Shown one piece after another: positions 5,610-61,101 of a DNA stretch of 64,000 nucleotides (within the stretch, counting starts at the first letter, position 1; every line of letters starts with the position of its first letter). The notes beneath the pieces were generated by a model. It saw only the letters and a program-made list of their open reading frames with translations, had not been told where the DNA came from and did no database searches. A program made the translations under genes and the position numbers. Where the stretch lies: assembly GCA_964415895.1 (NCBI GenBank), contig CAYQCC010000004.1, forward strand, positions 243 to 64,242, written 5' to 3'. Source of the DNA: an uncultured Candidatus Saccharibacteria bacterium (GTDB lineage Bacteria; Patescibacteriota; Minisyncoccia; Phycocordibacterales; UBA1006).

Positions 5610-5611
5610 AA

Positions 5612-10265: not shown

Positions 10266-10283
10266 AAATGAAGCTTTTATTGA

Positions 10284-33205: not shown

Positions 33206-33316
33206 GTCTTGACTATGCCAGTGGCCAATGGTATGAGGTACCACCCAATTTGGCAAATAATTTATTTTAGTATATGATACTCTACAAAGGTTGCCACTGG
33301 CTGAAAATTGGTTGGC

Positions 33317-33355
33317 AATCTTGGCCATACAACGGTGAGACGTTGTATGGCTTTT
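33317..33355 (+). terminator. Intrinsic terminator
   Basis: ccatacaacggtgagacgttgtatgg plus ctttttttg. Confidence 0.55.
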
Positions 33356-34013
33356 TTTGTATATGGAAAATACCTTTAAAAACAAGGGTTTTGAGCTAAC
33401 CGCTATGTGTGCGACTGCATAAGCATTGAGTATGCTAAAGGTTTGTTTTGATGATATTTGAGCCATAACTATCATAATCATGGTCAAAAATACAGGCGTA
33501 AAATGACGCATTTAAAATCTATGAGTCATTAAATGACTCATTTTAAATAGCTACTTAGAAGATAGTGCTAAAAGAAACTGCATAAAAAAAATATGAACCT
33601 ATTGCGGAATTAATAAATAAGGTTTACATTGAATTATAAATTCAAGATTATGTCAAGCTTAATGATTAATTCTCCACCATAATAATATAACCATAACTAG
33701 GTAATATTAAAAACAGTTTGCAAAAACTTGACATTTCAAAACACAACTATCATGACATAAACACAAAAATACAAGCATAGAAAATAGATTCAACTACTGT
33801 TAGGATTTCTATGTCCAAATTTTTGCATGATTTATTTTTTGAAATAGCAAGTTTAGCTACTGAACTTGTTATGGTTAAATTAATACATATAAAAAATGCT
33901 TTCTTACAATATTCTTGTGAGAAAGCATTTTTTATATATTCTTTAGAGTATACACAACCTGCATTTAGTACAATTCCGTTTCAAGGTATTCTTAATGCTA
34001 AAATTCAATACTT

Positions 34014-34634
34014 ATGGTAAGTAGAGAATTTAGCATATTAGATTTTGAGCAACAACCATTAAATGTTGCTATAAAGAATGAATTTCACTCTCTGGTTGAA
34101 ACATGCTTTAAAGATGATAGTCTACTTTTTGCCTATTTAGACTTAAAAGAAATCTACCATACAAGCGGATTATCGGAATTGTATTTGTTCACTGACAATA
34201 AAAATATATTACAAGGATTCGATAAAGAATACGCTGTTATGCTTGAGCAAATAGATAAAGAAAATGAACGACTTTACACATATCAAGGATGGTTTAAAAA
34301 ACTAAAAATTCGGAAAGCTAAAGGAACTCAACATCTTTTAGAAAATAAAGAGCAAATAGAATTTACATGGATTGAAACTCGAAAATCAAGAATACAAAGT
34401 GATTTTGCTACTGATATCCATTTCCAAGATGCTAGTTTAGCAAATTATGCAAATGACTATTTTTCTAATATGCAAGACTTAATTCTTAATAAGTTTCCGT
34501 ACTCATTAACTGTAATTCTTCCTATATACATAATTAGAAATTCACACCTAATTCCTTGTGCTGATTTGAGAATAAATTTAGGTACAAATATAGACATCAC
34601 CGTTTTCATAAAAATCTGCTATTTTAAAAATTAA
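34014..34634 (+). CDS. Hypothetical protein
   Basis: 206 aa ORF in the AT-rich island. No motif recognised. Confidence 0.3.
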   Translation: MVSREFSILDFEQQPLNVAIKNEFHSLVETCFKDDSLLFAYLDLKEIYHTSGLSELYLFTDNKNILQGFDKEYAVMLEQIDKENERLYTYQGWFKKLKIRKAKGTQHLLENKEQIEFTWIETRKSRIQSDFATDIHFQDASLANYANDYFSNMQDLILNKFPYSLTVILPIYIIRNSHLIPCADLRINLGTNIDITVFIKICYFKN

Positions 34635-35207
34635 GTCGTTTACTCTAGCGATATCTCTAACTAGGTCTACAGTAAATTTATTTGTGACAGACAACACATC
34701 TGAACGATACAATATATTCTGATTTTGAGTTTCTTCATCGCCAATCCAATCAATTAATAATTCAAGTCCATAAAATTGCGCAAGTCTGCCATTTAAATCT
34801 GCTAACATGGAGATTGTTTTTTCGCTTTTATCACTTGGTTCTTCAAGATTAACGATAGGTCTAGAGGTAATAATAGTAGCCTGACTTGCAGAAATTATTT
34901 TATATATTGACATAAGAGTGTCGGAAAACTTGACACTCACAACAAAATTTCTGTATAATTCTAAATAATATGCATAATAAACTGCAAATCTTTTTGCTTC
35001 AAATTCGATAGGGTGTAAAAAACCATATGATGGATAATTCGCTAATATTTTATTTTGAAATTGCGTAAAATAATTTGTAGAACTTTCTATTCTTACGTTC
35101 AGTAGTTCTTTATCTCTAATGGTTTTTTCAGAATTTTCTGTTTCTAAGAGTTTAAGTAGTTCTTGATAGATTTGTTCTATCGAATCAGATGTAATGTTAT
35201 CATTCAT
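34578..35207 (-). CDS. Hypothetical protein
   Basis: 209 aa ORF, convergent with and overlapping the previous ORF. Confidence 0.3.
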   Translation of the reverse strand: MNDNITSDSIEQIYQELLKLLETENSEKTIRDKELLNVRIESSTNYFTQFQNKILANYPSYGFLHPIEFEAKRFAVYYAYYLELYRNFVVSVKFSDTLMSIYKIISASQATIITSRPIVNLEEPSDKSEKTISMLADLNGRLAQFYGLELLIDWIGDEETQNQNILYRSDVLSVTNKFTVDLVRDIARVNDLIFKIADFYENGDVYICT

Positions 35208-35289
35208 ATTTTATGGTTTCAAATAAAAAAGGAAATAAAGATATTAAAATAATCTTTATTTCCTATAATTTTTTAAATAGTTTATTAAA

Positions 35290-35511
35290 CTATTTGGCGT
35301 TTAGTAAAGTTAAAGGTGCAACAATGTCTGGATGACTGCACAAGCCTATTGATTTAACTTTTAATGAATCAACCTCTTTATTTTTGAATTTAAGCCAATC
35401 CGGTCGGGTGACCGTATGGTTAAACTCAATGGTTACTGGTGATTCGGAGCCGTTTAGAATCCTTAATCTAGTAGGATTAAAAAAATCTAAAATTTTTTGT
35501 GAAGCTGCCAT
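35290..35511 (-). CDS. Hypothetical small protein
   Basis: 73 aa ORF. Confidence 0.2.
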   Translation of the reverse strand: MAASQKILDFFNPTRLRILNGSESPVTIEFNHTVTRPDWLKFKNKEVDSLKVKSIGLCSHPDIVAPLTLLNAK

Positions 35512-36189
35512 TTTTTAATTGTTTTAGTTTTTATAATTTGGTTCTTTTATAGTTTTAATTTTGGTTCAATGGTAACCTACCCCCCCCTTTTTTTTATTAA
35601 ATTTTTATAATTTTGGACTGCAAAGATACGATAAACAATTTTATTTACATAATGTAATTTTTTTTGCACAAATTGTTTATTACTTGCTCTAAATTGGATT
35701 GTAATATAATTATTAATTTAAAGCAAGTCCTTAAATACGCGATTCCATTTCTCTACATTTTCTTCGAATCTTTTGCACATTTTTCGATGCAATTTTACAC
35801 ATCAATTTAAACACTTTTAAACTTTGATTTAAACACCTGTGGACAAGCATTTGATATTCACCAACCTATAACGCCTAAATATCTAAAAAAGTATTTAAAA
35901 TCTGTTAAATTATAAGAACAATATTAAAATTAGCTAGGATTTAAGGGTTTATGTTACACAATTTAATAAATATTTTGCAAAAATAAGACCTGTTTTTCTC
36001 AAAGTCAAAATTTAAAGATGAATATTTAGTGTCCTTGAGATGTAATTATACTCTCTTATTGCTAAAATAATGTCCTATTCTTTTCTTTTTTTGGCACAAA
36101 TTAAACTAAATAACACTACTCACATATATATGCGCCTTATACAGAACAATACATTTTTTAATAAAAACTTGCCCTCTCGGGCAAGTAAA

Positions 36190-38873: not shown

Positions 38874-40424
38874 ATGAATATTACTAAACTAGCACTTATT
38901 TATTGTCGTGTCAGTTCCAAGCAACAATTGGATGGTGGCGGTCTTGGTAGCCAAGAACAAAGATGCCAAGAATATGCAAAATTTAACGGATATGAAGTTG
39001 TGGAAATATTCCACGATTCTTTTTCTGGTGGTGGTGACTTTATGAAACGACCTGCTATGCGTCAATTATTGGCGTATGTTGATGAACACTCACAAAATCA
39101 GTATGTAGTTATTTTTGATGACTTAAAACGCTTTGCACGAGATGTAAAATTTCATTGGGAATTGAGGAGTGAATTTGAATCACGAAACCTTATACCTGAA
39201 TGTTTAAACTTTAAATTTGAAGAAACACCAGAGGGAGCTTTTATTGAAACAATCATAGCTGCACAAGGTGAGCTCGAACGTAAACAACAAAAAAGACAGG
39301 TGTTGCAAAAAATGAAAGCACGAATGCAGAGGGGTTTGTCTTGCTTTCCTACTGCACCATACGGATATACCTATGTTGCAAGTTCCTTGCATGGCGGAAA
39401 GATCTTACAGATTGATAAAGAAGCATCAAAGGTTGTAAGGATGGCATTTTCCGAATTTGCAAATGGTAAATTATTTCATCTAAGAGATGTGACTAAGTTT
39501 CTTACAACAAATAGTGTAAGAAAAAAGAAAGTTGCATTTAAAGACGAAACTGTAAAAAGCATGTTGAGTAATGTTATCTACATTGGTTTCTTAGAATATC
39601 CGACATGGAATGTAGAACTTACTAAAGGTGTTCATGATGCAATTATTCCACTCGAATTATTTGAAAGAGTACAAATAAGATTAAAAGGTAAAATACCGCA
39701 AAGAACTCGTGTTGATATGAGAGAGGACTTTCCACTTCGTGGATATGTAAACTGTATTCATTGCAAACGTCAATTAACAGCATCTTGGAGTACAGGCAGA
39801 ATAGGGTCGAAACATCCTTATTATCGTTGCCATACCAAAGGATGTGTCATGGCAGGAAAAAGCATACAGAAAAAAGAACTGCATGATTTTTTTGAAGAGT
39901 ACATAAAACCACTCTCATTTAAGCCACAAATTAAAACAATAGCAAAACTTAAAATTCTTGAAGAGGCATTGAGAAGAAATAAGATAAAATATTTAGAATT
40001 AGAAAAAAAGAAACAGGAAATTATTTTAATAGATCAACAAATAGAAACTTTAGTTGAAAGGCTTTCTGCGCCACTAGATAGAAGTATTGCTGAGATATAC
40101 GAAAGCCAAATTGCTAATCTGAATAAAAAAAGAATTTTATTAAATGAGATCTCTATAAAAGATGATACTAACCCTAAATTGTTGGAACCTATAGTAGATA
40201 TTGCCTTTAAAAAGAGTGAAAACCCTTATGCTACATGGAAAAAAGACAAATACGAACTACAAAAACAGGTGTTGAATATGCTGTTTTATACCAATTTAGA
40301 ATATGGTAAAAAAGAGAAGTTTGGAAACACGAACGAGGCTTATTTATTAAGGCTTTTTAAGAGAATTGAGATTGAAAACAACCAAAATTTACAGCATGTC
40401 GAGATGCAGGGATTCGAACCCTGA
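38874..40424 (+). CDS. Large serine recombinase
   Basis: Resolvase domain with catalytic Ser in YCRVSSKQQ. Recombinase domain and Zn-ribbon CIHCKRQL...YYRCHTKGC. The 3' end overlaps tRNA-Pro by 26 nt. Confidence 0.85.
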   Translation: MNITKLALIYCRVSSKQQLDGGGLGSQEQRCQEYAKFNGYEVVEIFHDSFSGGGDFMKRPAMRQLLAYVDEHSQNQYVVIFDDLKRFARDVKFHWELRSEFESRNLIPECLNFKFEETPEGAFIETIIAAQGELERKQQKRQVLQKMKARMQRGLSCFPTAPYGYTYVASSLHGGKILQIDKEASKVVRMAFSEFANGKLFHLRDVTKFLTTNSVRKKKVAFKDETVKSMLSNVIYIGFLEYPTWNVELTKGVHDAIIPLELFERVQIRLKGKIPQRTRVDMREDFPLRGYVNCIHCKRQLTASWSTGRIGSKHPYYRCHTKGCVMAGKSIQKKELHDFFEEYIKPLSFKPQIKTIAKLKILEEALRRNKIKYLELEKKKQEIILIDQQIETLVERLSAPLDRSIAEIYESQIANLNKKRILLNEISIKDDTNPKLLEPIVDIAFKKSENPYATWKKDKYELQKQVLNMLFYTNLEYGKKEKFGNTNEAYLLRLFKRIEIENNQNLQHVEMQGFEP

Positions 40425-40471
40425 GTCACCTGCTCCCAAAGCAGGCATGTTAGCCGTTACACCACATCTCG
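40399..40471 (-). tRNA. tRNA-Pro (TGG)
   Basis: Acceptor CGAGATG/CATCTCG, anticodon arm CCTGC-TTTGGGA-GCAGG, T-arm CAGGGTTCGAATCCCTG. Confidence 0.8.
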
Positions 40472-46382: not shown

Positions 46383-46454
46383 GCCCTTGTAGTTCAATGG
46401 ATAGAACAGGAGACTTCTAAGCTCTTAATCGAGGTTCGATTCCTCGCGAGGGCA
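46383..46454 (+). tRNA. tRNA-Arg (TCT)
   Basis: Anticodon loop CTTCTAA, D-arm GTTC-AATGGATA-GAAC, T-arm CGAGGTTCGATTCCTCG. Confidence 0.8.
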
Positions 46455-46560
46455 CATTCAAGGCCGACGCGGAGGCCTCAAAAACCTTAGCAAATCTTTA
46501 TCTTTTCATTATGTATATTTCGTAATTATTTTATGGTAAGGTTCCATAATATATCCGTAT

Positions 46561-48492
46561 ATGCCTGATGAAAACAAAGAGACAACTCAAGAAAAACCAA
46601 AGAATCCCCTCGAAGGGTTTTTTGGCATCAAGGATACGACTAATCTCTATAACTATGTTTTAGTATTGCTTCGGCCAAAAGGAGTGGCCTACGAAATTGA
46701 TCCACTTTGGACAGCATATCAAAACATTATATCTGGCCAAGATGTAGAGATTACAGAAAATTTGATCATGGAATCATTAGAATTGATATTCAACCTAATT
46801 GAGCATGCACAAGGTAATTCCTGCAATCCTTCACCCTTTGTTACATACTGTGACGATATGGGTTTTTGGTTAAAGCCACGTTTGAAAGAAATTGTTGCAT
46901 ATGTGTCCAAAGTCGCACAAAAATATGATTATATAGAATTATCTGATCAGATAAAAAATATACTCACAGATACGGTTATTGACTCGGTCACTAACGGTAA
47001 TGACCAGGACTTATCTCTTGTTAAGGAGTTCATAAAAGAATTCGTTGTTTTGTATTTTCAAGCTCGATTGGAATTTAACAAAGTACCAGGTCGACTTTTA
47101 TATAAATTTCCAAGGTTCGAGGTTTTTGAAATTCTGAAAAATGAAGAGTATGGTCTTTATGGTCTTAATATGCACTTTTCAAATGGATCAAGCGCAAATT
47201 ATGAGCGTGTTGGCGAAAAAAGAACAGGGATGAATATTATGTGTGATCATCCAATAGGTTTTTTTGTTGGGATGAATGATGATTTAAAAAGGGAGTGGCG
47301 TATCGGCGATAAGCATCTTTACGAAATAGGACTTCCTGGAAGATATAATAATTGGGGCGAGTGGAGACCTCTCGTTCATCCGGGCGATTACACACAATTT
47401 GAGACGGAAAGTGTACGCATTGCTGAAGGCGATCTTGAAATAGCGAGCATCTTATTTTTTGTCATGTGTACTGGGCATAGAATAATTGAATTCGTAGCGA
47501 AAACACCAATAGAAATGCCGCATAGTGACTTTTCTCTGGGTGGCCACCTGTATTTGCATAAATGCGACAAGCCTGAGGAAAGTTCCCATCGGGCAAACGA
47601 TTTTGTTTTATATGATGGTCATTTTACTCTTGATGAACTCACCCCACTTGCGATAAGGTCAGCTATTGCTTCTATAAGTGTAGGCTTGAATCGCATGGCA
47701 TTTGCCTATGGATCAAACATTGAATGGGTGCCTAAATATTCAATGGTTCAGCACAACCCCCACGGCAAACCAACTCCTACTGAGGAGGATTTAAAAGTAC
47801 TTGAATCAATGCTGGTTGATTTTCCAAATAATGAAGACGCTATCGTTCTTGATATCTGCATAGACTGGTTTCACCGTGGGGAACTTGCGAGAAAGAAAAA
47901 TGTATTCCTTGCATTCCTTTGTTACTATATTGCACTAGAGAGTGTCGTTATCGCTATCACGGAAGGAGATGCTGATCTTGGATTTAATTATGAAAAAGAA
48001 ACCCGTACGGAAAGAAAAGATCGAGTGAATCAAGGAATCCGCAGTCTACACGAAGAACTATACGAGACCGATCCTGAAAAATTTATCAAGGAAGCCTATT
48101 TCAATCATGTTATTGGACTTAAACAAAGGACGAAACAAATCTGTGAACGAGTATTTGGAGAGGGTCACGAATATATGAAATCTTTGTTTGAAAAAAATGA
48201 GGACGGGTTTTCCCTTTCTGACTTGAGAAGCGAATTAGCACATGGAGGGGCAACCCTTCTAAGCACAGAACATAGAAAAATGATTCGCGAACGATTACCA
48301 GAACTAGCTGAAATTGTCACCAGTTTTGTTAAAAAAATTATTCTTAAACCAGAGCAGGAGTTTCCTAAATGGTCCCGTTCTCATAGTTTTTCTGTGTATC
48401 CAAGCGATCCAAGAGATACTATGATTATGACCGATGAAAGGGTGACGGGCAATGTGGGTGGCTGGAAAATAAAACCAGAGTGGATGGACTAG
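46561..48492 (+). CDS. Large hypothetical protein with C-terminal HEPN-like Rx4H motif (candidate abortive-infection/RNase)
   Basis: 643 aa. C-terminal LSDLRSELAHGG (R-x4-H) in a helical domain. No other recognised domain. Adjacent to a serine recombinase. Confidence 0.35.
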   Translation: MPDENKETTQEKPKNPLEGFFGIKDTTNLYNYVLVLLRPKGVAYEIDPLWTAYQNIISGQDVEITENLIMESLELIFNLIEHAQGNSCNPSPFVTYCDDMGFWLKPRLKEIVAYVSKVAQKYDYIELSDQIKNILTDTVIDSVTNGNDQDLSLVKEFIKEFVVLYFQARLEFNKVPGRLLYKFPRFEVFEILKNEEYGLYGLNMHFSNGSSANYERVGEKRTGMNIMCDHPIGFFVGMNDDLKREWRIGDKHLYEIGLPGRYNNWGEWRPLVHPGDYTQFETESVRIAEGDLEIASILFFVMCTGHRIIEFVAKTPIEMPHSDFSLGGHLYLHKCDKPEESSHRANDFVLYDGHFTLDELTPLAIRSAIASISVGLNRMAFAYGSNIEWVPKYSMVQHNPHGKPTPTEEDLKVLESMLVDFPNNEDAIVLDICIDWFHRGELARKKNVFLAFLCYYIALESVVIAITEGDADLGFNYEKETRTERKDRVNQGIRSLHEELYETDPEKFIKEAYFNHVIGLKQRTKQICERVFGEGHEYMKSLFEKNEDGFSLSDLRSELAHGGATLLSTEHRKMIRERLPELAEIVTSFVKKIILKPEQEFPKWSRSHSFSVYPSDPRDTMIMTDERVTGNVGGWKIKPEWMD

Positions 48493-51228: not shown

Positions 51229-51233
51229 CTAAG

Positions 51234-51306
51234 TGCCCTCGGCAGGACTCGAACCCGCATCTTCCTCAGTAGAACAGAGGCACCCTATCCATTGGACCAC
51301 GAGGGC
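51234..51306 (-). tRNA. tRNA-Arg (probable TCT anticodon), second divergent copy
   Basis: Acceptor GCCCTCG/CGAGGGC, T-arm GCGGGTTCGAGTCCTGC, anticodon arm CCTCT-GTTCTAC-TGAGG with a T-T closing mismatch. Only about 70% identical to the tRNA-Arg at 46383 (aligned by eye) and higher GC. Confidence 0.6.
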
Positions 51307-51422: not shown

Positions 51423-52421
51423 TTACTTTTTTATTTGCATCGATTCTACTCTCTGTATCAGTTTCCATCCGTTTCCATGCGACAGCAGTCCGCGGTACGA
51501 ATTAACCACTGCCTCATCCCCTGCATAGATCCCTGGATTGCTGAGCATTCTACGCTTCGTTGCAGTACGCAGTGTCCGATGATGTGGAAAATGAACCCAC
51601 CCGAGAAAATCTATCCCCGAGGCAAGCGTCTTGATAAATAATTTATTCGGATGCAACGATAATTTTAATTTGGTTTCGAGAAACTCGGAAATCTGCGGAA
51701 CGAGGTTTTCTAAGTAATCCTTGTCCTCATGCAGAATGGCGAAATCGTCCGCATAACGAATATAGTGTTTTATTTTGAGCGTTCGCTTCATGAAGTGGTC
51801 AAATTCATTCATATATACGTTCACCAGAAGTTGTGATGTTAGGTTTCCCAACGGCAAGCCGACATCGACTCTGCCTTCGGTCGAAAAACTATCGATGAGC
51901 CGATCGAATAACTGAAGAAGCTTCTTGTCCTGAATATGCTCCGACAGAATCCTTTTTAGGATTACATGGTCAATGTTCGCAAAGAATTTCCTGATGTCGC
52001 ATTTCAAAATCCAGCACGCCCGCGTATTGTTTTTGGAAACGATGCGCGAGAAATCTGTGAAGCGATTCATCGCCTTATGAGTCCCCTTGTTGATGCGACA
52101 GGAATACGAATCATAGATAAATTTTTTATCAAAATATGGGTACAGTTCATCATGCAAGAGATGGTGCAGTAATCGATCTCGCACCGTCGCCTTATGGATA
52201 TTCCTCGGCTTCGGGTCACTAATTTTAAATGCATCATATCCGCTATGGTGATACTTTTTATATTTCAAATCGTGATGCACATTTAATATGTGTTCCATTA
52301 AATTTCTTTCGAACTCTAGCACGTCGCGTTTTTGTTTTTTGCCGCGGCGAAACTCACGCCATGCGTGTAATAAATTTTCAACCGATATGATATCATCATA
52401 GTTATGATCAAAAAACTTCAT
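51423..52421 (-). CDS. Diversity-generating retroelement reverse transcriptase
   Basis: RT motifs: ISDPKPRNIHKATVRDRLLHH (motif 1/2), LGNLTSQ (the DGR-specific IGxxxSQ replacing QGxxxSP), YADDFAIL (YxDD). Start taken at MKFFDHNYDDIISVENLLHAW. The ORF-track start 52607 reads through a poly-C tract. Confidence 0.85.
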   Translation of the reverse strand: MKFFDHNYDDIISVENLLHAWREFRRGKKQKRDVLEFERNLMEHILNVHHDLKYKKYHHSGYDAFKISDPKPRNIHKATVRDRLLHHLLHDELYPYFDKKFIYDSYSCRINKGTHKAMNRFTDFSRIVSKNNTRACWILKCDIRKFFANIDHVILKRILSEHIQDKKLLQLFDRLIDSFSTEGRVDVGLPLGNLTSQLLVNVYMNEFDHFMKRTLKIKHYIRYADDFAILHEDKDYLENLVPQISEFLETKLKLSLHPNKLFIKTLASGIDFLGWVHFPHHRTLRTATKRRMLSNPGIYAGDEAVVNSYRGLLSHGNGWKLIQRVESMQIKK

Positions 52422-52839
52422 TCCAATAATATTACCCCCCCCCCCGACGATTTTACCAGTGCTGAGTAAGGTAAAAACTGTGTACATCTCATGGTTCGAT
52501 GTGTATAAAAAATTAGAAAAAGTACATAAATACACGCTCGGACAAAAGATTGATAATTTGTTTGTTGAGATTATAGAATCGATATCGCTCGCGACGTTTT
52601 TGGACAAAACAGAAAAACAGCCGTGGATCAGATTTGCGATCAGGAAATTGGATACGGTGAAAATACTGCTATTGATATTATGGGAAACACGCTCGATTGA
52701 TGATACGGTCTACATTACCCTGTCAGAACCAATCCACGAGATTGGTAAAATGCTGGGTGGTTGGAACGGGCAGCTGACAAAACTGTCCGAGAATGCAAAA
52801 TAAAACTCATCCAGATTTTGGATGAGAAACGAAATAATA

Positions 52840-52968
52840 TGCTGGAACGGAACACGAAACGGTTGTTCCCATTCCACCTGTTGTCCATGTGGCCATTGTT
52901 GTTGTTCAACCACGGTTCGGAATCGTTCCGATTCACGTTGAACAGTTTCGGGTCACCGTCTGCGTCAG
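52840..52968 (-). repeat. DGR template repeat (TR)
   Basis: About 129 nt, near-identical to 53317-53448. Every mismatch corresponds to an adenine in this copy on the minus strand. AAC-rich when translated (NNNNGHMDNRWNGNN). Confidence 0.85.
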
Positions 52969-53221
52969 TATTATATGTGATGCCATCCGTGCCACCATCC
53001 ATCGATTCACCCTGTGAGAATTTCTGAATTGAATTTGATTTGATATCTAAAATACCCTAGCACCACATACCAAGTAACTTCATTTTTTGAAGTGTCTACA
53101 TGAATTGCGCTCTACAAGACCGTGATGTTGCAGACTCTGAATTCATGGATACTGATTTCGGTCGTGGCCATCGTAATGAGCCACAGATTAACCTACTCTC
53201 ATCTTAAATATACCATATGAA

Positions 53222-53252
53222 AAAAAATCCTGCCGATGGTGGCAGGATTTTT
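53222..53252. terminator. Intrinsic terminator after the DGR target gene
   Basis: aaaaaaaatcctgccgatggtggcaggatttttt. Confidence 0.65.
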
Positions 53253-53308
53253 TAAGTTCTAAATGCATAGTTTCAAAGTGCCAGTGCACAATATCACAGT
53301 TCACAGGA

Positions 53309-55237
53309 CTAAGACTTGCTGGAACGGAACACGAAACGGTAGAGCCCATGCCACCCGCTGTCCACGCGGCCATAGCAGTAGTAGTCCAACCACGGTACGG
53401 AAGCGTACCGAGACACGCGGAACAGTACCGGGCCACCGCCTGCGCCAGCAATCGGTTCCATTGCAATTCGTAGATATTCGTCATTTGGCTGATCGGTGTA
53501 CGACAATCGCAATTCTGGTCCCACCTGTGGCGGACACAGTTCCAATCCCATGGATCGTGCCTTGTCATAAATTTCCTGCAACGTCGCGCCGTTTGGAAAC
53601 CCAAGCTGTTCAACGGAAAATGAAACGAGCTTGATCTGCTCAGGAGATTTCAATGGCTCAATCTTGTTTAAGATTTGCTGCGCGTAGGTATATACCTGAT
53701 TACCCTTATCAATGAGCTCTTTTGTGTACTGTTCTGGCGTCTTGGTAGACAATTCCAAAGATTGCTTGAAGATTTTTGTCTCTGGGAATGATTCGTACAG
53801 ATACTGTACTGTGTCAGGCATTTTTTGATATATGTCGACATTCCACGGTCCGATATAAGCGACGGTATGTTCATTTACCTGATCAACATTATTTGCAATT
53901 TGGTCTGGCGTGCAGTCAAAAATTACAGGCGCGTCATCCATTGCATTTCTGGTTGAGAGAATTTCTGCAATACGCGGATCTTTCTGGTAACCGAACCCTT
54001 CAATGGAACCATCCATTTCGTACAAGAACCGAAGGTCGGCCGATGACAGCGCTAACCCTGCGCGATTCTTTTCAGTAATCGCAGTGAGATGTTTCATGTC
54101 GGCGGATCGTTTAAGATATTTCTCCCCCTCTGCGCCAAACTCTGACAATTTTTCATCGATCACTGGCTGGATGAACTGGTCGACATTCTGGTCTTTTTCG
54201 ATTCCGCGAATTTCGGAAATACTATCCCCAGTCATTCGGATCGCGATGCGAGGAATCACGGAAATTCCCTGCTCGTCCTGGGAATAGTACACATGGAAAT
54301 CGCCACCTTGTAATTGTGTTCGTGCCGTTTCAATGTTCGTGGCAGTGCACCATTCCAGCGGATATCCCTGAAGCGATTCGTAGAGCTCGTTCGGTTCTGA
54401 ATTTTCTGGATATGTCTTCCATTTTCCTGCAATATTCTCGAGATGTTTCCATGACATTCCTGAGAATTGCTCCAATGCGTGGGTGTACAGTTTTGAAAAG
54501 TTTTCGGTAGACACCAGTTCGCGATACGTGCCGTCATGATTCAGCGAATACATCAACTCCTTTTCTTTCTTTTGGCGATCCAGCATGTTGACCTCGTCTT
54601 TCGGAATTCCCGAAAGGGCGACCTGCTTTTGGATCACGTCAATGGTCTTTGCGAGGCAGGCAATGTTGAGCGTCGGGAACGGCTGCGATGTCGTTTTGGT
54701 TCTCCTGCCGTATCGGGCTTCCTTTTTGTTGTATCCACCCATTTCTGTCATGCTGCGGAATGCCCAGTATTTTGCCCAGTCCGGGTACAGCGCATCTGGT
54801 GATGAAAGGTAGTCAATCCATGCATCGAGTGACCGTCGCTGTCCGTCTTGAATTTCCTTGATCTTTTTCTCTTCCCAATCTGGTGTTGGTTCGGGTCTCC
54901 CGTGTCCCTGCTGTTCTGCGATTCGCTGTTCCTGGTCAAGGAAGTAATCCAACGGGATGTTTTCTGGGCTGATGATCAGTTGTTTGTGAAGCACTCGCTT
55001 CATTGCCTCGATCCCCATGGCGCGCTTTTCTGGATCTTGGCGATCTAAAATTTCCTTGAACCTATTCAGGTAGTTTTCAATGCGATCTTCTGGCTTCTCG
55101 GAAACCTTTTCACCCTTGCGATATTCGGTCCGTTCGGCAGATTTCACCACTTCTGGTGAGGTATGCAGGTTTGCGTATTTCTTCTTGAGAAAATTAATCG
55201 GGTTTTCCATATGCATAACTTTACCACATATTGTCAA
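53309..55237 (-). CDS. DGR target protein with C-terminal variable region
   Basis: 642 aa, no signal peptide. The last ~45 aa (…GGGPVLFRVSRYASVPWLDYYCYGRVDSGWHGLYRFVFRSS) are encoded by the VR. The N-terminal 600 aa are uncharacterised. Confidence 0.75.
   Translation of the reverse strand: MTICGKVMHMENPINFLKKKYANLHTSPEVVKSAERTEYRKGEKVSEKPEDRIENYLNRFKEILDRQDPEKRAMGIEAMKRVLHKQLIISPENIPLDYFLDQEQRIAEQQGHGRPEPTPDWEEKKIKEIQDGQRRSLDAWIDYLSSPDALYPDWAKYWAFRSMTEMGGYNKKEARYGRRTKTTSQPFPTLNIACLAKTIDVIQKQVALSGIPKDEVNMLDRQKKEKELMYSLNHDGTYRELVSTENFSKLYTHALEQFSGMSWKHLENIAGKWKTYPENSEPNELYESLQGYPLEWCTATNIETARTQLQGGDFHVYYSQDEQGISVIPRIAIRMTGDSISEIRGIEKDQNVDQFIQPVIDEKLSEFGAEGEKYLKRSADMKHLTAITEKNRAGLALSSADLRFLYEMDGSIEGFGYQKDPRIAEILSTRNAMDDAPVIFDCTPDQIANNVDQVNEHTVAYIGPWNVDIYQKMPDTVQYLYESFPETKIFKQSLELSTKTPEQYTKELIDKGNQVYTYAQQILNKIEPLKSPEQIKLVSFSVEQLGFPNGATLQEIYDKARSMGLELCPPQVGPELRLSYTDQPNDEYLRIAMEPIAGAGGGPVLFRVSRYASVPWLDYYCYGRVDSGWHGLYRFVFRSSKS
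53317..53448 (-). repeat. DGR variable repeat (VR)
   Basis: Matches TR except at TR-adenine positions (about 25 substitutions) and one 3-nt indel in a triplet run. The identical 3' segment gctggaacggaacacgaaacgg is IMH-like. Confidence 0.85.
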
Positions 55238-55541: not shown

Positions 55542-57260
55542 GTGTTGCCTATGTCTTATACAGAAAAAGAGCTTATTGCTCAAATTTCAGAATTACAATC
55601 TGAAATCAAAAAATTAAAGGCTCGAAAAAAATACGGACTCGTCTGGGAAGACAAACCAGAAGATGTGGTTTTGCAGTGCGAAACTAACGTCCCTATTCTA
55701 AAAGAAGTTAAGGCCAGAAAGCTGGTATCCGATAATTCGCTCCCAACGAATCTTTTGATCGAGGGAGACAATTATCACTCACTTTCTGTTTTGAACTACA
55801 CACATAAAGGAAAAATAGATCTGATTTATGCAGATCCTCCTTACAACACTGGCAATAAAAGCTGGAGATACAACAATGACTACGTAGAAAAAGAAGATTC
55901 ATTCCGTCACAGTAAATGGATTTCGTTTTTTGAAAAAAGACTGCGCTTAAGTCGTAACCTTTTAAACGACAAGGGTATTATTGTTGTAACGATTGACGAT
56001 TATGAGATCGGTACTGTGCGATTACTAATGGATGAAGTTTTTGGAGAAGAAAACCGTCTGGGGCTGGTGACGATAATGCACAACCCACGAGGAAGAAGTG
56101 ATGATAAATTTTTTGCCACCTCACATGAATACGCACTTTTTTATTCAAAAAATATAGACAGTGCTATTACCCATAAAATCGACCTGACCCAAGAGCAAGC
56201 AGATCTATTTAATCTTTTTGATTCGATCTCTAACTATAGACTTCTTCCCCTTAAAAGAACGGGATCGAATTCAACCCCAAAAGAACGACCCAAATTATTT
56301 TTTCCAATTTTTGTAAACAAAAAAACACTTGAAATTTCAACAAAAAAACAAGGTACTGGGTGGATAGAAGTACTACCTAAAGACGGAACAGGATCTGATC
56401 GTGTATGGCGTTGGGGTAAGGAAAAAATTGAGAAAGAATGGAAGACAGAACTTGTTGCAAAAATAAAGAACGATAAATGCTCACTATTCACAAAAGATAG
56501 AATAAAATCTGGTCGCAAACCAAAAACAATTTGGATCGAACCAAGCTACGATGCCTCATCGCATGGAACCGTACTGTTGGAAAACATTCTTAATAAGAGA
56601 AAGGTTTTTGACTACCCAAAATCACTCTATGCCGTCATCGATACCCTTAAAATAGTTTCAAAAGAAAATAAAGATGCTATCATTCTCGACTTCTTTGCAG
56701 GCTCTGGTACGACGGGCCACGCTGTTCTCGAGCTCAATAAACAAGACGGCGGGAATCGAAAGTTCATACTCTGCACTAACAATGAGAACAAGATTGCCGA
56801 GGAAGTAACCCACGAGCGCCTCAAGCGAATAATAAAAGGATACAAAAACAAAAAAGGAGAGAATGTTGAAGGTCTCGGCGGTAATTTGTCGTACTTCAAA
56901 ACTGATCTCGTTAGTATTGATAAGCTCCGCCGTATTTCAGATGATGCAAAAATAAAAGTTACCTATCGAGCAGGTGAAATGATCGCCCTGCGTGAAAACA
57001 CGTTGAACGAAATTGAGAAAAACGATTGGTGGCAGATATTCGAAGGCAATGGAAAATTAACAGCAATATATTTCACAGAGAGCAAATCAAAACTCATAGA
57101 CCTTCTGGATTTGCTTGAGAAGAAAAATATGCCGACCAATTTGTATATTTTTGGCTGGGGAAAAAATGAGTACAAAAACGATTATTCCACGAAGATTATC
57201 CGAGTCGAGGATATTCCAGAACCGATCCTTGAGGTCTACAAGGAAATTAACCGCATCTAA
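55542..57260 (+). CDS. mod: Type III restriction-modification methyltransferase (Mod, N6-adenine)
   Basis: IYADPPYNTGN (DPPY) followed later by FFAGSGTTGHAV (FxGxG). 572 aa. Confidence 0.85.
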   Translation: MLPMSYTEKELIAQISELQSEIKKLKARKKYGLVWEDKPEDVVLQCETNVPILKEVKARKLVSDNSLPTNLLIEGDNYHSLSVLNYTHKGKIDLIYADPPYNTGNKSWRYNNDYVEKEDSFRHSKWISFFEKRLRLSRNLLNDKGIIVVTIDDYEIGTVRLLMDEVFGEENRLGLVTIMHNPRGRSDDKFFATSHEYALFYSKNIDSAITHKIDLTQEQADLFNLFDSISNYRLLPLKRTGSNSTPKERPKLFFPIFVNKKTLEISTKKQGTGWIEVLPKDGTGSDRVWRWGKEKIEKEWKTELVAKIKNDKCSLFTKDRIKSGRKPKTIWIEPSYDASSHGTVLLENILNKRKVFDYPKSLYAVIDTLKIVSKENKDAIILDFFAGSGTTGHAVLELNKQDGGNRKFILCTNNENKIAEEVTHERLKRIIKGYKNKKGENVEGLGGNLSYFKTDLVSIDKLRRISDDAKIKVTYRAGEMIALRENTLNEIEKNDWWQIFEGNGKLTAIYFTESKSKLIDLLDLLEKKNMPTNLYIFGWGKNEYKNDYSTKIIRVEDIPEPILEVYKEINRI

Positions 57261-57264
57261 TTAT

Positions 57265-59556
57265 ATGTTTGCACTCAAACCATTCCAAGAAAATGCCATC
57301 GGTCACCTCAAGGAGAAGTTTCTGACGCTGTGGAAACTCGGCGATCGCAATTTGAGCCTCACACTCAAATCCCCAACAGGATCTGGGAAGACGGTCATGA
57401 TGGCGCAATTCCTGCGAGACATCGTATCGGATCCGCGATTCCAAAATGCCGATGTCGGATTCTTGTGGATCACTAATTCGGATTCATTGGCTATGCAGTC
57501 AAAAGAAAAGCTGTTTTCGTATTATGGAGGAGCAAGTGAGAACACGTTGCTCGATCTGAATGATCTACGTGACGGCTATATTCCCAAGAACGGAGTATTC
57601 TTCATCAACTGGCAGAAATTGGTATCGCGAGCGCAGACCAACAGAAAACTTCGTGCGGAAGGCGAACTCAATACCACTTTTGACGAATATTTGGATGCCA
57701 CCCATGCACAAGGACGAGAGGTCGTCCTGATTATAGACGAGGAGCATATCGCCTCATCTACCGTTCTTGCAAATGACCTGATTCAAAACGTTATCAAGCC
57801 ACGAATCATCATCGGAGTTTCCGCTACCCCACAAACGGTCGGAGTCACCGTCGATGTTGATCGTGCCGATGTCGTTCGCGAAGGTCTCATCAAAGAGAAA
57901 ACTATCTTCCAAACCGAGGAAGATTTGGCACATCCCGAATTCAAGGGAATGGATCAGGACGATATTCTGCTTACCCTTGCATACAACAAGCGAGCCGAGC
58001 TTGCCAGTTACTATGCTGATCTTGGTATCGATATAAATCCCTTAGTGCTTATCCAGCTTCCAAATGACGACAAGTCTTCAGAGGGATCGAAGCAGGATCT
58101 GATTATCAACTTCCTCAAGTCAAAGGGAGTATTCGAGCACGAAATCGCAGTCTGGCTCTCAGAAGATAAAATAAATCTCGATGCAATCGAGAAAAATAAT
58201 TCGCCTGTTTCATTTTTGCTTTTCAAGCAAGCGGCGGCTACTGGTTGGGATTGTCCTCGCGCAAGTGTCCTGGTTATGTTCCGCGAAATTAAGAATCCGA
58301 CATTTGCAATCCAAACGGTAGGACGCATTCTGCGCATGCCACTTGGAACACATTTTCCAAAACCTGAATTGAATCTCGGTTATCTCTACACCAATTACAA
58401 GCGAAATGAAGTGATTATGGGATACTCAAAATCTACCGACCAGAACCGCCCTGCCATCTACGGGAGTTACCGCAAGCAGTCCATCGAACCGATCATGCTT
58501 GAATCCGTATTCATGAGCCGAACCGATTACAACGACCTTGGTGACAGTTTTCAAGACGAGTTCAAAAAGATTGCCGATGAGTATTTCTTGCTCAAGGGAA
58601 ACATTACCGCAAAAACCGTACGCAAGAATTTCTCTGACAAAGGACTTGATCCTGATACTGTCGTTACGAACGGACTCATCATAGGAGTGGAAATTGACGA
58701 TTACGACAACTTCAAACAGGAACTCCTTTCAGAAGGCAGTAGCCATGAGCAGGAAATGTCCCAGCACGATCTCGAGCGACTCTATAACCTCTTTTGCTTC
58801 AATCTGCTCGCAAAACAAACCGACGAGAATAAGAAGTTTGCGCCAGAGCGTTCATGGGGTAAACTCAAGACAGCCTTGAACGTTTGGCTACTGGGACATT
58901 TCGAAGAACCTCGACAAAAAATCTATTCGATTATTGTCGGAGACCTCTTAAAAACAAATAGCGTCCTCGCACCTCTTATCGGAAAATCTCTTGAATCATA
59001 TCGATCTATACGCGAACATGAGGTCAATCGAAAATCGGAACGCGCGAAGCGGACTGAAAAAATCGAAATCCCTCGGCAAAGCATTTTCTATACTGATCAA
59101 TATGAAGAGATGGATGTTAGGAAATCAGCTATGACTCCGTTTTATATTGAAAAGGATTACAAGGGTGACGATAACGAAAAGGAATTTATAAAGTTCCTTG
59201 AAGAAAGCAAGAACGTCACATGGTGGTACAAGAACGGCGATGCTGGTAGTGAATTCTTTTCGATATCCTATTTCAACCCAGACGAGAACAAGGAGAAGCT
59301 TTTCTATCCCGACTGGATATTCAAGGTAAAGGATACAGTTTGGATCGTTGATACAAAGAAAGGCTTTACGGCTGAATCTGCTGACACTAAATACAAATCC
59401 GAGGCACTCCAACAATGGCTCAAAGGTAAGAAAGAATTCACGGGCGGAATAGCAGTGCAAGATGGTCCGAACGGATGGAAGTTTAACCGCAATACTATCT
59501 ATTCTTACACGCCATCATTTACCAAATGGGATGATTTGAAGGATTTATTCGCATAA
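57265..59556 (+). CDS. res: Type III restriction enzyme Res subunit (SF2 helicase-nuclease)
   Basis: Walker A KSPTGSGKTV, DEEH box LIIDEEHIAS, helicase motif VI QTVGRILRMP. Starts 5 nt after mod. Confidence 0.85.
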   Translation: MFALKPFQENAIGHLKEKFLTLWKLGDRNLSLTLKSPTGSGKTVMMAQFLRDIVSDPRFQNADVGFLWITNSDSLAMQSKEKLFSYYGGASENTLLDLNDLRDGYIPKNGVFFINWQKLVSRAQTNRKLRAEGELNTTFDEYLDATHAQGREVVLIIDEEHIASSTVLANDLIQNVIKPRIIIGVSATPQTVGVTVDVDRADVVREGLIKEKTIFQTEEDLAHPEFKGMDQDDILLTLAYNKRAELASYYADLGIDINPLVLIQLPNDDKSSEGSKQDLIINFLKSKGVFEHEIAVWLSEDKINLDAIEKNNSPVSFLLFKQAAATGWDCPRASVLVMFREIKNPTFAIQTVGRILRMPLGTHFPKPELNLGYLYTNYKRNEVIMGYSKSTDQNRPAIYGSYRKQSIEPIMLESVFMSRTDYNDLGDSFQDEFKKIADEYFLLKGNITAKTVRKNFSDKGLDPDTVVTNGLIIGVEIDDYDNFKQELLSEGSSHEQEMSQHDLERLYNLFCFNLLAKQTDENKKFAPERSWGKLKTALNVWLLGHFEEPRQKIYSIIVGDLLKTNSVLAPLIGKSLESYRSIREHEVNRKSERAKRTEKIEIPRQSIFYTDQYEEMDVRKSAMTPFYIEKDYKGDDNEKEFIKFLEESKNVTWWYKNGDAGSEFFSISYFNPDENKEKLFYPDWIFKVKDTVWIVDTKKGFTAESADTKYKSEALQQWLKGKKEFTGGIAVQDGPNGWKFNRNTIYSYTPSFTKWDDLKDLFA

Positions 59557-59562
59557 AAAAAT

Positions 59563-61101
59563 ATGAGCACATTGATATCAAAAACAACTTTTATAGATTC
59601 ACGCAATTGTATTAAAAATACATGGCTCAAGCTCCACAAGGCAGAACTTTTGGTGAATTTTGAGCTATCTGAATTTGAAAAGCAGCTTATCGAGCAAGGA
59701 AACGAGGTGGAAGAATGCGCTCGCAAGCTTTTCCCTCTCGGCGTTGAGGTTACGAGCACGGGAGAGAATGCCTGCATTGAAACAATGCGATACATGGAGT
59801 CCAAAGTTCCTGCCATTTTTCAGGCAACATTTATTGCTGACGGATTCATTGCTCGAAACGACGTGCTGGTATATGACAAGAATAATGATTGCTGGGATTT
59901 GTACGAGATCAAGGGAACGAACTCTCTCAAGGAAGGGTCGGGCGACAGAAGCCATGTCGAGGATGTCGCTTTTCAAGCCGTTGTGCTCCGTCGCGCCAAC
60001 ATGAATCTCGGACGCTCGTTCTTGGTTCACCTGAATAAAGACTATGTGAGAGTTGGTGATCTCGATATCGAACAGTTGTTCATTATTGAAGATCTCACTG
60101 AAACAGTCGCGGAGAGGTTCGACGAGATAAGTATCCTGATGGACGGAGCAAGGGAGTTTCTTTCGCAGGAGAACGAACCTCCGTCTGGTTGCGATTGCCA
60201 CTATCTCGGCAGAAGCAGGCACTGCGCAACCTTCCCATATTCCCATCCTAAAATTCCTGAATATTCCGTTCATGACCTTTCGCGAATCGGCAGCAGCAAG
60301 AAAAAGCTTGAATTCTTTGCCGAAAATGAAATCTATCGTCTGGAGGATATTCCATATGATTTTGAATTATCGCCAATCCAGACAAACCAGCTTGAAGCTT
60401 ATCTCACGCAAAAGATAACGATCGATTACGAAGAGATTCATCAGCAGTTGAAAAACCTCAGGTTCCCTCTCTACTTTTTCGACTATGAAACATATGCGCC
60501 CGCCATACCGTCTTTCGCAAATTACAGCCCGTACAAGCGCATTCCGTTTCAATTCTCGCTTCACATTTTGAGAGATCCTATGGGAGAACTCGACCATGTC
60601 GAATTTCTCCATCCTACGCGCACCGATCCGTCTGAACTGGTTGCTAAATTACTCAACGAATACATCAAGCCCGAGGGAACGATCATCGCGTGGAACAAGT
60701 CGTTTGAAATCGGAGTCAACAATGAGATTGCACAACGGCTTCCAGAATATCGGGAGCTGCTCGAGAGAGTCAACGGTCAATTTTACGATCTCATGGAAGT
60801 TTTCTCAAAACAGCACTACATCCATCCCGATTTCCGCGGAAGCGCATCGATCAAGAAAGTGCTTCCTGTATTGGTGCCAGAACTTCAGTATAAGGATCTT
60901 GCCATTCACGAGGGAGGTCAGGCATCCGAGCAGTGGTGGTTCATGGTATCGCCGACGACTTCGGAGGAAAATTACGCCGAAGTTTCAAGAAACTTGAAGG
61001 AATACTGCAAGCTGGATACCTACGCCATGTATGCGATTTGGAAGCACTTGTATCAGATAACGGAATACTTATCTAAAATCAGCGAGGGAAATATTGGATG
61101 A
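59563..61101 (+). CDS. Dual-nuclease protein: Cas4-like PD-(D/E)xK domain (with Cys cluster) fused to a DEDD/RNase-H-like exonuclease domain (DUF2779-like)
   Basis: N-terminal ARNDVLVY...WDLYEIKG...QAVVL (D, ExK, Q motifs) with Cys16 and CDCHYLGRSRHC. C-terminal FFDYETYAP (DxE), IIAWNKSFEIG, and HxxxxD/Y motif DTYAMYAIWKH. Starts 7 nt after res. Confidence 0.5.
   Translation: MSTLISKTTFIDSRNCIKNTWLKLHKAELLVNFELSEFEKQLIEQGNEVEECARKLFPLGVEVTSTGENACIETMRYMESKVPAIFQATFIADGFIARNDVLVYDKNNDCWDLYEIKGTNSLKEGSGDRSHVEDVAFQAVVLRRANMNLGRSFLVHLNKDYVRVGDLDIEQLFIIEDLTETVAERFDEISILMDGAREFLSQENEPPSGCDCHYLGRSRHCATFPYSHPKIPEYSVHDLSRIGSSKKKLEFFAENEIYRLEDIPYDFELSPIQTNQLEAYLTQKITIDYEEIHQQLKNLRFPLYFFDYETYAPAIPSFANYSPYKRIPFQFSLHILRDPMGELDHVEFLHPTRTDPSELVAKLLNEYIKPEGTIIAWNKSFEIGVNNEIAQRLPEYRELLERVNGQFYDLMEVFSKQHYIHPDFRGSASIKKVLPVLVPELQYKDLAIHEGGQASEQWWFMVSPTTSEENYAEVSRNLKEYCKLDTYAMYAIWKHLYQITEYLSKISEGNIG

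Follow-up and report, generated by a model that had tools for sequence, protein, structure and literature searches.

One reference system for the locus described here is the diversity-generating retroelement (DGR) of Bordetella phage BPP-1 (mtd, avd, TR, brt), in which the spacer between the TR and the reverse transcriptase (RT) gene is 140 nt. The DGRs of CPR bacteria (Patescibacteria) have been described as architecture 'B3', for which the order TR-(avd)-RT is standard (Wu et al., 2018; PMC5758913), and as DGR clade 2 (Roux et al., 2021; PMC8144416). Their targets typically have no signal peptide or recognisable domain, and whether these proteins are truly non-membrane was left as an open question (Roux et al., 2021; PMC8144416).

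We analysed a 64,000-nt stretch of a contig from an uncultured Candidatus Saccharibacteria bacterium (the window), which very probably carries an intact DGR of this CPR type. The order of its elements is target gene with VR, TR, avd and RT, all on the minus strand except avd, which lies on the reverse strand between the TR and the RT as in B3. The gene order is therefore that of the described CPR DGRs, and as in those elements the VR is at the C-terminus of a target that has no signal peptide, membrane segment or known domain (PMC5758913, PMC8144416). No fundamental difference from them was found; a 3-nt difference in length between VR and TR is particular to the window copy, and a simple-repeat tract between avd and RT is common to the clade and the window. 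The locus thus seems to be a further example within a known clade, with its apparent novelty limited to the repeat tract, and what it adds is a well-resolved case in which the comparative evidence for independent homing is unusually clean. Its status as a DGR is supported by every sequence criterion that could be tested, namely an adenine-only pattern of TR/VR differences, an RT of the DGR clade, a VR located 3′ in the target ORF and a TR rich in AAY codons. A sequence-only reading of the region had described a complete DGR consisting of RT, TR and VR; these elements were all recovered, but the Avd-like gene had been overlooked. The features are as follows.

51423 to 52421, minus strand: DGR reverse transcriptase, 332 aa, ATG at 52421 (Pfam RVT_1, E 1.6e-22)
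52435 to 52445, minus strand: G11 tract (C11 on plus), 13 nt away from the start codons of both RT (ATG) and avd (GTG)
52459 to 52803, plus strand: Avd-like accessory gene, 114 aa, GTG start, on the opposite strand to TR, VR and RT
52796 to 52826, minus strand: 8-bp hairpin with U-rich tail, 14 nt after the TR, between the TR and the avd stop codon
52840 to 52968, minus strand: TR, 129 nt, 38 adenines
53221 to 53253, minus strand: strong hairpin followed by a T-run, about 65 nt 3′ of the VR (DNA fold z-score −3.28)
53309 to 55210, minus strand: target (variable-protein) gene, 633 aa, ATG at 55210, stop at 53309-53311
53312 to 53674, minus strand: C-terminal domain of ~120 residues containing the VR, predicted compact C-type-lectin (CLec) fold
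53317 to 53340, minus strand: 3′ segment of the VR identical to the TR, in the IMH position, 24 nt from the alignment
53317 to 53448, minus strand: VR, 132 nt, encoding GAGGGPVLFRVSRYASVPWLDYYCYGRVDSGWHGLYRFVFRSS, 24 substitutions relative to the TR
53372 to 53386, minus strand: five VR codons (GAC TAC TAC TGC TAT) against four TR codons (AAC AAC AAC AAT), an in-frame 3-nt insertion

The neighbouring IS256-family transposase (Pfam Transposase_mut) and tRNA-Arg (anticodon TCT) named in the earlier reading are both present, and an Rfam search over 50.5–56 kb gave nothing above threshold except the tRNA. That reading had also pointed to a higher GC content and suggested horizontal acquisition. 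GC was indeed higher at the DGR region (0.42–0.47, compared with about 0.36–0.41 across the first 46 kb), but the difference is modest and the raised values extend to the end of the window; GC supports the idea weakly. Acquisition of the cassette by horizontal transfer is nevertheless plausible, the better evidence being that a DGR cassette of the same type occupies different genomic contexts in relatives. A 643-aa ORF at 46561–48492, considered as a possible paralogue of the target, showed no similarity to it by BLASTP.

TR and VR in the window and in sister strains

When aligned on the minus strand, with a single 3-nt gap placed within the (AAC)3AAT run, the two repeats formed two gapless blocks with offsets of 480 and 477 nt. 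There were 24 mismatches (25 under other gap placements), and at all 24 the TR had an adenine and the VR another base (10 A>G, 9 A>T and 5 A>C), with none at a non-adenine position; for 38 adenines in 129 nt the hypergeometric probability of this outcome is 1.3e-16. The sequence-only reading had given the same repeat coordinates, had counted about 25 differences, all of them A in the TR and non-A in the VR, and had called the TR AAC-rich, and each of these statements held on tabulation. The TR translates as DADGDPKLFNVNRNDSEPWLNNNNGHMDNRWNGNNRFVFRSS, and 35 of its 38 adenines fall at codon positions 1 or 2. The VR forms the final 43 codons ahead of SKS-stop, and a search of the window for VRs matching the TR found only this one.

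The mismatch table refutes the idea that ordinary duplication or gene conversion, followed by normal divergence, produced the repeats, with an unrelated retron or group-II-like RT lying nearby. One result could be read in favour of that idea, namely that the top NCBIfam model for the RT was a group II intron RT/maturase, at 147 bits far under its cut-off of 300, with no DGR RT model among the NCBIfam matches. However, three relatives show the adenine-only pattern independently, the locus includes an Avd-like gene and the closest solved relative of the RT leads the next RT class by a very wide margin (see below), and we regard ordinary duplication as next to inconceivable.

The three relatives are sister strains (L008, L009 and L010) whose TRs are 96.9–97.7% identical to the window TR. 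Their VRs differ from the cognate TRs at 17–21 positions, all of them TR adenines except for one TR point change, and the substitutions are unrelated to those of the window. The non-adenine differences between the TRs are mirrored in each cognate VR, and the related proteins P0004–P0007 differ mainly in the VR. Information flows from TR to VR with adenine-specific change, and the outcome differs among sister strains. The combination of near-identical TRs and unrelated VRs in three sister strains points to independent homing events, and conservation of the TR at 97–98% while the VRs were all independently rewritten implies recent activity in the lineage. Homing is not so frequent that every sample differs, as a protein identical to that of the window, VR included, was present in a second sample (SRR26856460) and an identical P0005 protein was found on 17 contigs.

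The shared VR in two samples would also fit a locus that is a DGR by descent and is now inactive in this genome, in which the VR would be a frozen record of a cycle stopped by the extra codon or by regulatory decay. Consistent with this, the VR is 3 nt longer than the TR, the G-tract ahead of the RT could be at an 'off' length, and some family members, among them P0034 in a 1.29-Mb genome, lack an RT or avd next to them. Against it, the ORFs for RT, Avd and target are intact with the catalytic motifs present, the VR has acquired neither stop codons nor non-adenine drift, and the TR has been conserved among strains in which VRs were rewritten. We therefore consider inactivity unlikely and favour an intact element.

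The 3-nt VR/TR indel that the earlier reading had called atypical is real and amounts to one extra VR codon, so that N-N-N-N in the TR corresponds to D-Y-Y-C-Y in the VR. The VRs of the three sisters are gapless, at 129 nt, and almost all members of the target family have one residue fewer at the insertion point. The extra codon would most likely have arisen by slippage of the RT on the (AAC)3AAT run in a single homing event. The difference in length could lower the efficiency of future homing.

At the 3′ end the repeats share the identical stretch described previously, in the IMH position, although the alignment gives it 24 nt instead of 22. It includes two unchanged adenines, and TR and VR diverge directly after it. 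With the BPP-1 IMH as a model, this segment can be viewed as a putative IMH-like element, but unlike in BPP-1 no GC-rich hairpin directly follows it. The hairpin at 53221–53253, for which a terminator-like site was detected on the opposite strand of the palindrome, is likely to be the terminator of the target gene. The hairpin 14 nt after the TR possibly marks the end of the TR RNA or forms part of a spacer structure; it is restricted to a close subgroup (the window and L008–L010) and is missing in more distant relatives. A conserved RNA structure spanning the TR and downstream sequence was rejected, as the fold was no stabler than shuffled sequence (z −1.05) and the hairpin occurs in close relatives only. 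Long-range pairing of the purine tract with a pyrimidine-rich motif at the TR end was also rejected, repeat type and motif showing no co-variation when compared by eye.

Reverse transcriptase, Avd and the proposed cycle

The RT start codon is 418 nt beyond the downstream end of the TR and the ORF contains the motifs LPLGNLTSQ and YADD, which agrees with the RT previously reported about 400 nt downstream with LGNLTSQ and YADD. Motif 4 ([ILV]GxxxSQ), YxDD and the best solved relative all place the enzyme in the DGR clade. That relative is 8ub7_A, a 328-aa RT chain that we take to be Bordetella bRT (E 9e-39, with IGSLTSQ aligned to LGNLTSQ); the next RT class, at E 9e-20, is 19 orders of magnitude behind. 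The best 80 of its 514 relatives in metagenomes of groundwater, sediment and sludge are 59–67% identical to the window RT.

The Avd-like ORF matched NCBIfam DivGenRetAVD (E 5.6e-13, 49 bits, profile positions 5–102 of 104) and Pfam bAvd (E 3.1e-9, 37.7 bits, full profile length), both below the curated cut-offs, and had no match among PDB sequences. Homologues with 61% identity have a precomputed bAvd match, and a reverse-strand Avd was detected in nearly all related loci; we take the ORF, with its sub-threshold profile scores, as the accessory protein of the DGR.

The locus shares with the BPP-1 DGR the adenine-specific pattern of TR-to-VR mutagenesis, an RT of the same clade (IGSLTSQ there and LGNLTSQ here, with YxDD), an Avd-type accessory protein, a C-terminal CLec-fold VR (predicted here) and an invariant 3′ repeat segment. 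It differs in the placement of avd, which lies between TR and RT on the other strand and makes the TR–RT region about 420 nt long and antisense to avd, and in that the host is cellular rather than a phage and the target is not a tail fibre.

By analogy with BPP-1, RNA containing the TR would be transcribed from the minus strand and copied into cDNA by the RT together with the divergently encoded Avd, non-adenines being copied faithfully and any base being placed opposite a template adenine. The cDNA would then replace the VR, with the invariant 24-nt 3′ segment acting as a guide. Up to about 20 codons would be rewritten within the last 43 residues of the 633-aa target, and the altered residues would form the ligand-binding face of the small predicted CLec-fold domain, with the N-terminal ~500 residues serving as a constant, CPR-wide module.

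The diversified target

A target of 642 aa had been claimed, and the ORF is open upstream to a TTG at 55237, but we took the gene product as 633 aa from the ATG; this product is identical to the public-collection protein P0121. It had no match in Pfam, NCBIfam or PDB sequences. There are at least 1,250 homologues, and every match with an organism name is from CPR/Patescibacteria. The protein belongs to a very large unannotated family (7,935 cluster representatives), many members of which match only profile positions 1 to about 430. The earlier reading had suggested that the diversified scaffold may belong to an undescribed family; the diversified C-terminus is predicted to have the usual CLec fold. 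This prediction, for the last ~120 residues with the VR as the C-terminal part of the fold, is of high confidence; a Foldseek search with the full-length model against the PDB returned nothing below E 0.4. Compared with TvpA (2y3c) and Mtd (1yu0), the domain is much smaller, nearer in size to a Link module or minimal CTLD, and has no sequence similarity to them, and the N-terminal part of the protein is unrelated. A Pfam match to FGE-sulfatase or DUF1566 is also missing, and neither family is among those listed for 77 homologues.

Some CPR targets have been reported with a PcfJ-like domain upstream of the VR (category g; Wu et al., 2018; PMC5758913). The central conserved region of the window target (GWCTAG...YVYYS) was considered as such a domain, but it had no Pfam PcfJ match even at E up to 10, and aligning the family profile to pCF10 PcfJ with hhalign yielded a probability of 0.9%. 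Domain fusions were no more informative about the N-terminal module, as Pfam searches of 19 long or atypical family members showed. In other family members this module bears other C-terminal domains, which suggests that the target may be read as an effector or anchor module combined with a variable binding head. That a DGR invests in diversifying the tip of the target marks the family as a binding protein worth characterising.

The signal peptide reported as absent is indeed absent, and there is no membrane segment either (maximum Kyte–Doolittle value over 19 residues, 0.98); the target is probably soluble and not exported by Sec. Attachment to a host bacterium is the way of life of CPR bacteria such as Saccharibacteria, and the protein might instead be a cell-surface adhesin rather than intracellular, leaving the cell by a non-classical route and helping the epibiont to attach to changing host surfaces. 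Such a role would suit a predicted CLec head, which is a binding module, and surface or binding proteins make up most of the cellular DGR targets (PMC8144416). Besides the missing export signals, the hydrophilic, highly conserved N-terminus and the lack of secretion-related neighbours conserved across the loci speak against an adhesin, and the literature leaves the location of CPR DGR targets open (PMC8144416), a question on which this target bears directly. We consider the adhesin possible, though less likely than not, and prefer a soluble protein, whose ligand, as a guess, might come from the host bacterium or from a phage. In multicellular bacteria, DGRs diversify antigen sensors that are reportedly intracellular, at least putatively. 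These putative sensors provide a precedent for targets that belong to putative conflict systems and not to surface display (PMC10907252); the window target differs from them in that no NTPase, protease or other conflict-system domain was detectable in it.

A simple-repeat tract ahead of the RT

The G11 tract in the short gap between avd and RT is adjoined at its 3′ end, on the RT strand, by a TAATAT hexamer resembling a −10 element. About 95% of related CPR loci have poly-G, (GA)n, (GT)n or (CTGG)n upstream of the RT (74 of 78 where the upstream sequence extended for at least 130 nt, and shorter contigs too), compared with only 1 of 80 other DGR-like RT loci. G11 has the slippable length and the regulatory or coding position of a contingency locus. 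In four loci with 100% identical flanks (L001, L005, L006 and L007) the tracts read G11, G10, G11 and G10, respectively, in assembly consensus sequences in which homopolymer error is possible. Under the same reservation, tract length also differs between the window (G11) and L009 (G12), and L021 and L031 show (CTGG)9 versus (CTGG)11.

Two further constraints were considered and rejected. Each of the three possible relative frames of avd and RT was represented (24/14/9 among poly-G loci, 9/8/5 among (GA)n loci), so the tract is not constrained to one reading frame. Nor is a fixed −35 element upstream of it supported, since the spacing from a TGGCAA-like motif to the −10-like hexamer, counted by hand, ranged from 12 to 18 nt.

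Phase variation through simple repeats occurs at the (TA)n of Haemophilus influenzae hifA/hifB and in the poly-G/C promoter tracts of Neisseria. In common with the hifA/hifB type, a putatively hypermutable repeat lies in a very short gap between divergent genes, with a −10-like hexamer adjoining it in the window and apparent length differences between otherwise identical alleles (in assembly consensus). From these sequence features we propose, tentatively and leaning slightly against it ourselves, that CPR-type DGRs may carry a hypermutable switch in which tract slippage would tune or silence the mutagenesis machinery, making targeted hypermutation phase-variable within a population. That the position of the tract is conserved in the clade while its repeat unit changes is as expected under selection for mutability and not for sequence. 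No description of the tract was found in the searchable literature, the founding paper (Paul et al., 2017) excepted from that search. If the proposal is true, the tract would be a mechanism controlling when a DGR mutates its target, and would be relevant to the question of how cells contain the cost of mutating themselves continuously.

The CPR tract differs from the hifA/hifB type in the orientation of its repeat, the G-rich strand being the RT-sense strand at every listed RT-upstream site. This constant orientation hints at a role at the level of RNA or translation over one of pure promoter spacing. Where relatives have (GA)n, the repeat may fall within the reading frame of the RT.

Template and variable repeats of a CPR-type DGR

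The two repeats that the sequence-only reading had placed at 52840-52968 and 53317-53448 were both recovered, and aligned with a single 3-nt gap inside an (AAC)3AAT run, leaving 24 mismatches. Tabulation against the base in TR bore out the proposal that the differences were confined to adenines: all 24 mismatches fell on TR adenines (10 to G, 9 to T and 5 to C), and the other bases were unchanged, a result with a chance probability of 1.3e-16 given 38 A in 129 nt. TR translates as DADGDPKLFNVNRNDSEPWLNNNNGHMDNRWNGNNRFVFRSS, and 35 of its 38 adenines lie at codon position 1 or 2. The identical 3' segment reported earlier was also present in both copies, with a length of 24 nt rather than 22 and divergence immediately beyond it. 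No second VR for this TR was found in the 64-kb window. The parts of the element, in order from the target to the RT, are as follows.

ATG at 55210, minus strand: target gene, 633-aa product
53448-53317, minus strand: VR, 132 nt
52968-52840, minus strand: TR, 129 nt, 38 adenines
52459-52803, plus (opposite) strand: avd-like ORF between TR and RT, 114 aa, with profile matches
52435-52445, minus (RT) strand: G11 tract, the longest G/C run in the window
ATG at 52421 to 51423, minus strand: RT, 332 aa, Pfam RVT_1 match

The RT ORF contained the DGR-specific motif LPLGNLTSQ as well as YADD, as had been noticed from the sequence. Its closest solved structure was 8ub7_A (a 328-aa RT chain, which we take to be Bordetella bRT; E 9e-39), with IGSLTSQ opposite LGNLTSQ, and the next RT class followed at E 9e-20. 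The RT, TR, VR and target originally listed were thus all present, and an Avd-like gene had been overlooked: the reversed ORF between TR and RT aligned over the full profile length with two Avd models, that of NCBIfam at E 5.6e-13 and Pfam bAvd at E 3.1e-9, both matches scoring below the curated cut-offs. An arrangement of target/VR, TR, reversed avd and RT corresponds to architecture B3 (Wu et al. 2018, PMC5758913), and the layout is therefore standard for the CPR DGR clade. Both the adenine-confined mismatches and the RT carrying LPLGNLTSQ and YADD support the DGR interpretation; the element is real and is a further representative of a DGR class already known from CPR bacteria, with the standard layout. 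A terminator-like hairpin followed by a U-tract was seen at 52796-52826 on the minus strand, 14 nt past TR, and occurred only in the window's closest relatives; if used, TR RNA would stop before running antisense into avd.

A simple repeat between avd and the RT gene

The avd start codon (GTG, 52459) and that of the RT (ATG, 52421) are separated by 37 nt, the middle 11 of which form a G-run on the RT strand, and G10-G12 was found at the equivalent site in eight relatives. We surveyed this position in the close loci and in the best 80 of 514 metagenomic RT relatives, which share 59-67% identity with the window's RT; 78 of all these loci had at least 130 nt upstream of the RT. Poly-G of 7-12 nt was present in 46 of the 78 and (GA)n of 10-34 nt in 24, with (GT)n and (CTGG)n in two loci each; three had no repeat upstream of the RT, and in one (L022) a G7 was present and was outscored by a nearby T-run. 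The tract accordingly occurs in ~95% of related CPR-type DGR loci, and shorter contigs also carry it. By comparison, it was found in only one of 80 control loci (DGR-like RTs on viral contigs, 29-60% identity), and that locus was the second-closest of them (55% identity). The 522 kb of locus DNA contained 89 such repeats, ~80 of them immediately upstream of an RT; among the others were second segments of a tract already counted and a small number of unrelated runs. In most loci the reversed avd started ~10-30 nt upstream of the tract.

The length of the tract also appeared to vary, although homopolymer error in the assemblies may contribute. Four loci with 100% identical flanks (L001, L005, L006 and L007) carried G11, G10, G11 and G10, respectively, in the assembly consensus, and (CTGG)9 in L021 compares with (CTGG)11 in L031, again as assembly consensus. 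Judged on sequence, the combination of a conserved site, a changing motif and an apparently variable length looks like a contingency switch. The main alternative is that the tract is a G-rich element acting at the RNA or translation level, for example an extended ribosome-binding element, and this is favoured by the constant strand bias, as the G-rich strand was the RT-sense strand at all ~80 RT-upstream repeats. Public short-read contigs tended to break at or beside the poly-G tract: L010 ended inside it (4789-4799), L092 (5752) ended 13 nt short of it, and in L008 it lay at 2921-2931 of a 2951-nt contig. Such breaks fit either a mixture of tract lengths within the population or difficulty in sequencing across the repeat.

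Of 50 poly-G loci, 16 (the window among them) had a TAnnnT hexamer abutting the tract, against 1.3 expected by chance; the order in the window is G11-TAATAT-7 nt-ATG. Most (GA)n loci had no canonical start codon from the tract to the conserved RT N-terminus; read in the RT frame, the tract gives (Arg-Glu)n. In nine loci of this type (L013, L020, L028, L046, L055, L066, L079, L080 and L082) the RT frame was open upstream of the repeat, with a recurring peptide, KYPSLI..KIEAL, antisense to the Avd N-terminus and a TTG ~30 nt ahead of the repeat; in these loci the start of the RT may lie upstream of the repeat. The frame of avd relative to that of the RT was not fixed across loci. No simple repeats linked to DGRs were found in the searchable literature, whose reach did not extend to Paul et al. 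2017, and the tract appears to be unreported. It is clade-wide and directly testable, and is the most interesting element in this DGR.

Repeat transfer and the target family

Evidence of past homing was found in three sister loci (L008, L009 and L010), whose TRs are 96.9-97.7% identical to that of the window. Their VRs, of 129 nt and gapless against their own TRs, showed 17-21 differences, all at TR adenines except for one site of changed TR, and these substitutions were unrelated to those of the window VR. The few non-adenine differences among the TRs were mirrored in the cognate VRs, and the target homologues P0004-P0007 differed from one another mainly in the VR. On these comparisons, the pattern in the sister loci reads as the signature of repeated, independent transfer from TR to VR in sister lineages. 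Homing is episodic and not constant, since the window's target protein was found unchanged in a second sample (SRR26856460) and the homologue P0005 unaltered on 17 contigs.

At the 3-nt gap, the VR reads D-Y-Y-C-Y opposite N-N-N-N in TR. The sister VRs and almost all members of the target family have the shorter form at that point, so that the codon was gained by the window VR. We infer that it arose when the RT slipped while copying the AAC repeat into cDNA; alternatively, a later replication slippage could have duplicated TAC.

The VR lies at the 3' end of the target gene, as first described, and the product, given then as a 642-aa ORF, is 633 aa when counted from the ATG at 55210. It matched a public protein (P0121) exactly. 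It had no Pfam or NCBIfam match and no sequence relative in PDB, its N-terminus is hydrophilic, and it contained no hydrophobic segment (Kyte-Doolittle maximum 0.98). One search gave at least 1,250 homologues, those with a named organism all being from Patescibacteria lineages, and an exhaustive profile search recovered 7,935 cluster representatives with E of 1e-3 or lower, of which 1,965 had E of 1e-30 or lower. Many members matched only profile positions 1 to ~430 and had different C-termini; the N-terminal part of the target therefore behaves as a constant module. Pfam scans of 19 long or atypical members provided no functional clue from fused domains. The VR scaffold is a predicted CLec fold, standard for DGRs. 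A lack of membrane or known domains is typical of CPR DGR targets according to Roux et al. 2021 (PMC8144416), who raise the question of whether these are non-membrane proteins. The family is uncharacterised, yet already typical of the CPR DGR class. A member with a VR-like C-terminus (P0034) was seen at 8001-10546 of the 1.29-Mb contig Ga0377233_000001 (L002), where recA-side genes lie on one side of it and ftsK on the other. Neither an RT nor avd is adjacent, and a 650-nt non-coding gap follows; the gene may be an orphan target or depend on a DGR acting in trans.

Genomic surroundings

Downstream of the RT lie, in order, a tRNA-Arg(TCT), an IS256-family transposase, a large serine recombinase, a 643-aa ORF and a second tRNA-Arg(TCT).

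51233-51306, minus strand: tRNA-Arg(TCT), first gene past the RT
46383-46455, plus strand: second tRNA-Arg(TCT), inverted relative to the first and only ~70% identical to it

The two tRNA genes thus flank a 4.7-kb block of the three protein-coding genes, whose products are 91-97% identical to those of the block beside the DGR in a Candidatus Saccharibacteria MAG (L001), whereas the DGR parts of that locus are only ~56-80% identical to those of the window. No tRNA was found at the corresponding position in L001. The block resembles a mobile module, one that either moves together with such DGRs or has inserted beside them more than once. Horizontal acquisition of the DGR had been proposed from its GC content and from the adjacent IS256 and tRNA-Arg, both confirmed here. 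GC was only modestly raised, but the same DGR type occurred in a different, housekeeping context in the sister locus L009, and mobility of the cassette is plausible. The DNA directly upstream of the target encodes a type III restriction-modification pair, made up of an N6_N4_Mtase and a ResIII helicase, together with a DUF2779 protein (55542-59556 and 59563-61101, both plus strand), and the same neighbours were present in L092. No phage genes came up when the large ORFs nearby were scanned against Pfam.

Elsewhere in the window, a low-GC island was seen at 30000-36000 (0.27-0.30 vs ~0.39). Just past it is a second large serine recombinase (38874-40424), the 3' end of which overlaps a tRNA-Pro (40398-40471), suggesting another element integrated at a tRNA gene. 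Finally, a 1,258-aa isoleucyl-tRNA-synthetase-like protein (1941-5717, minus strand) has a histidine-phosphatase domain (His_Phos_1) inserted at residues 604-779, which is an unusual fusion.
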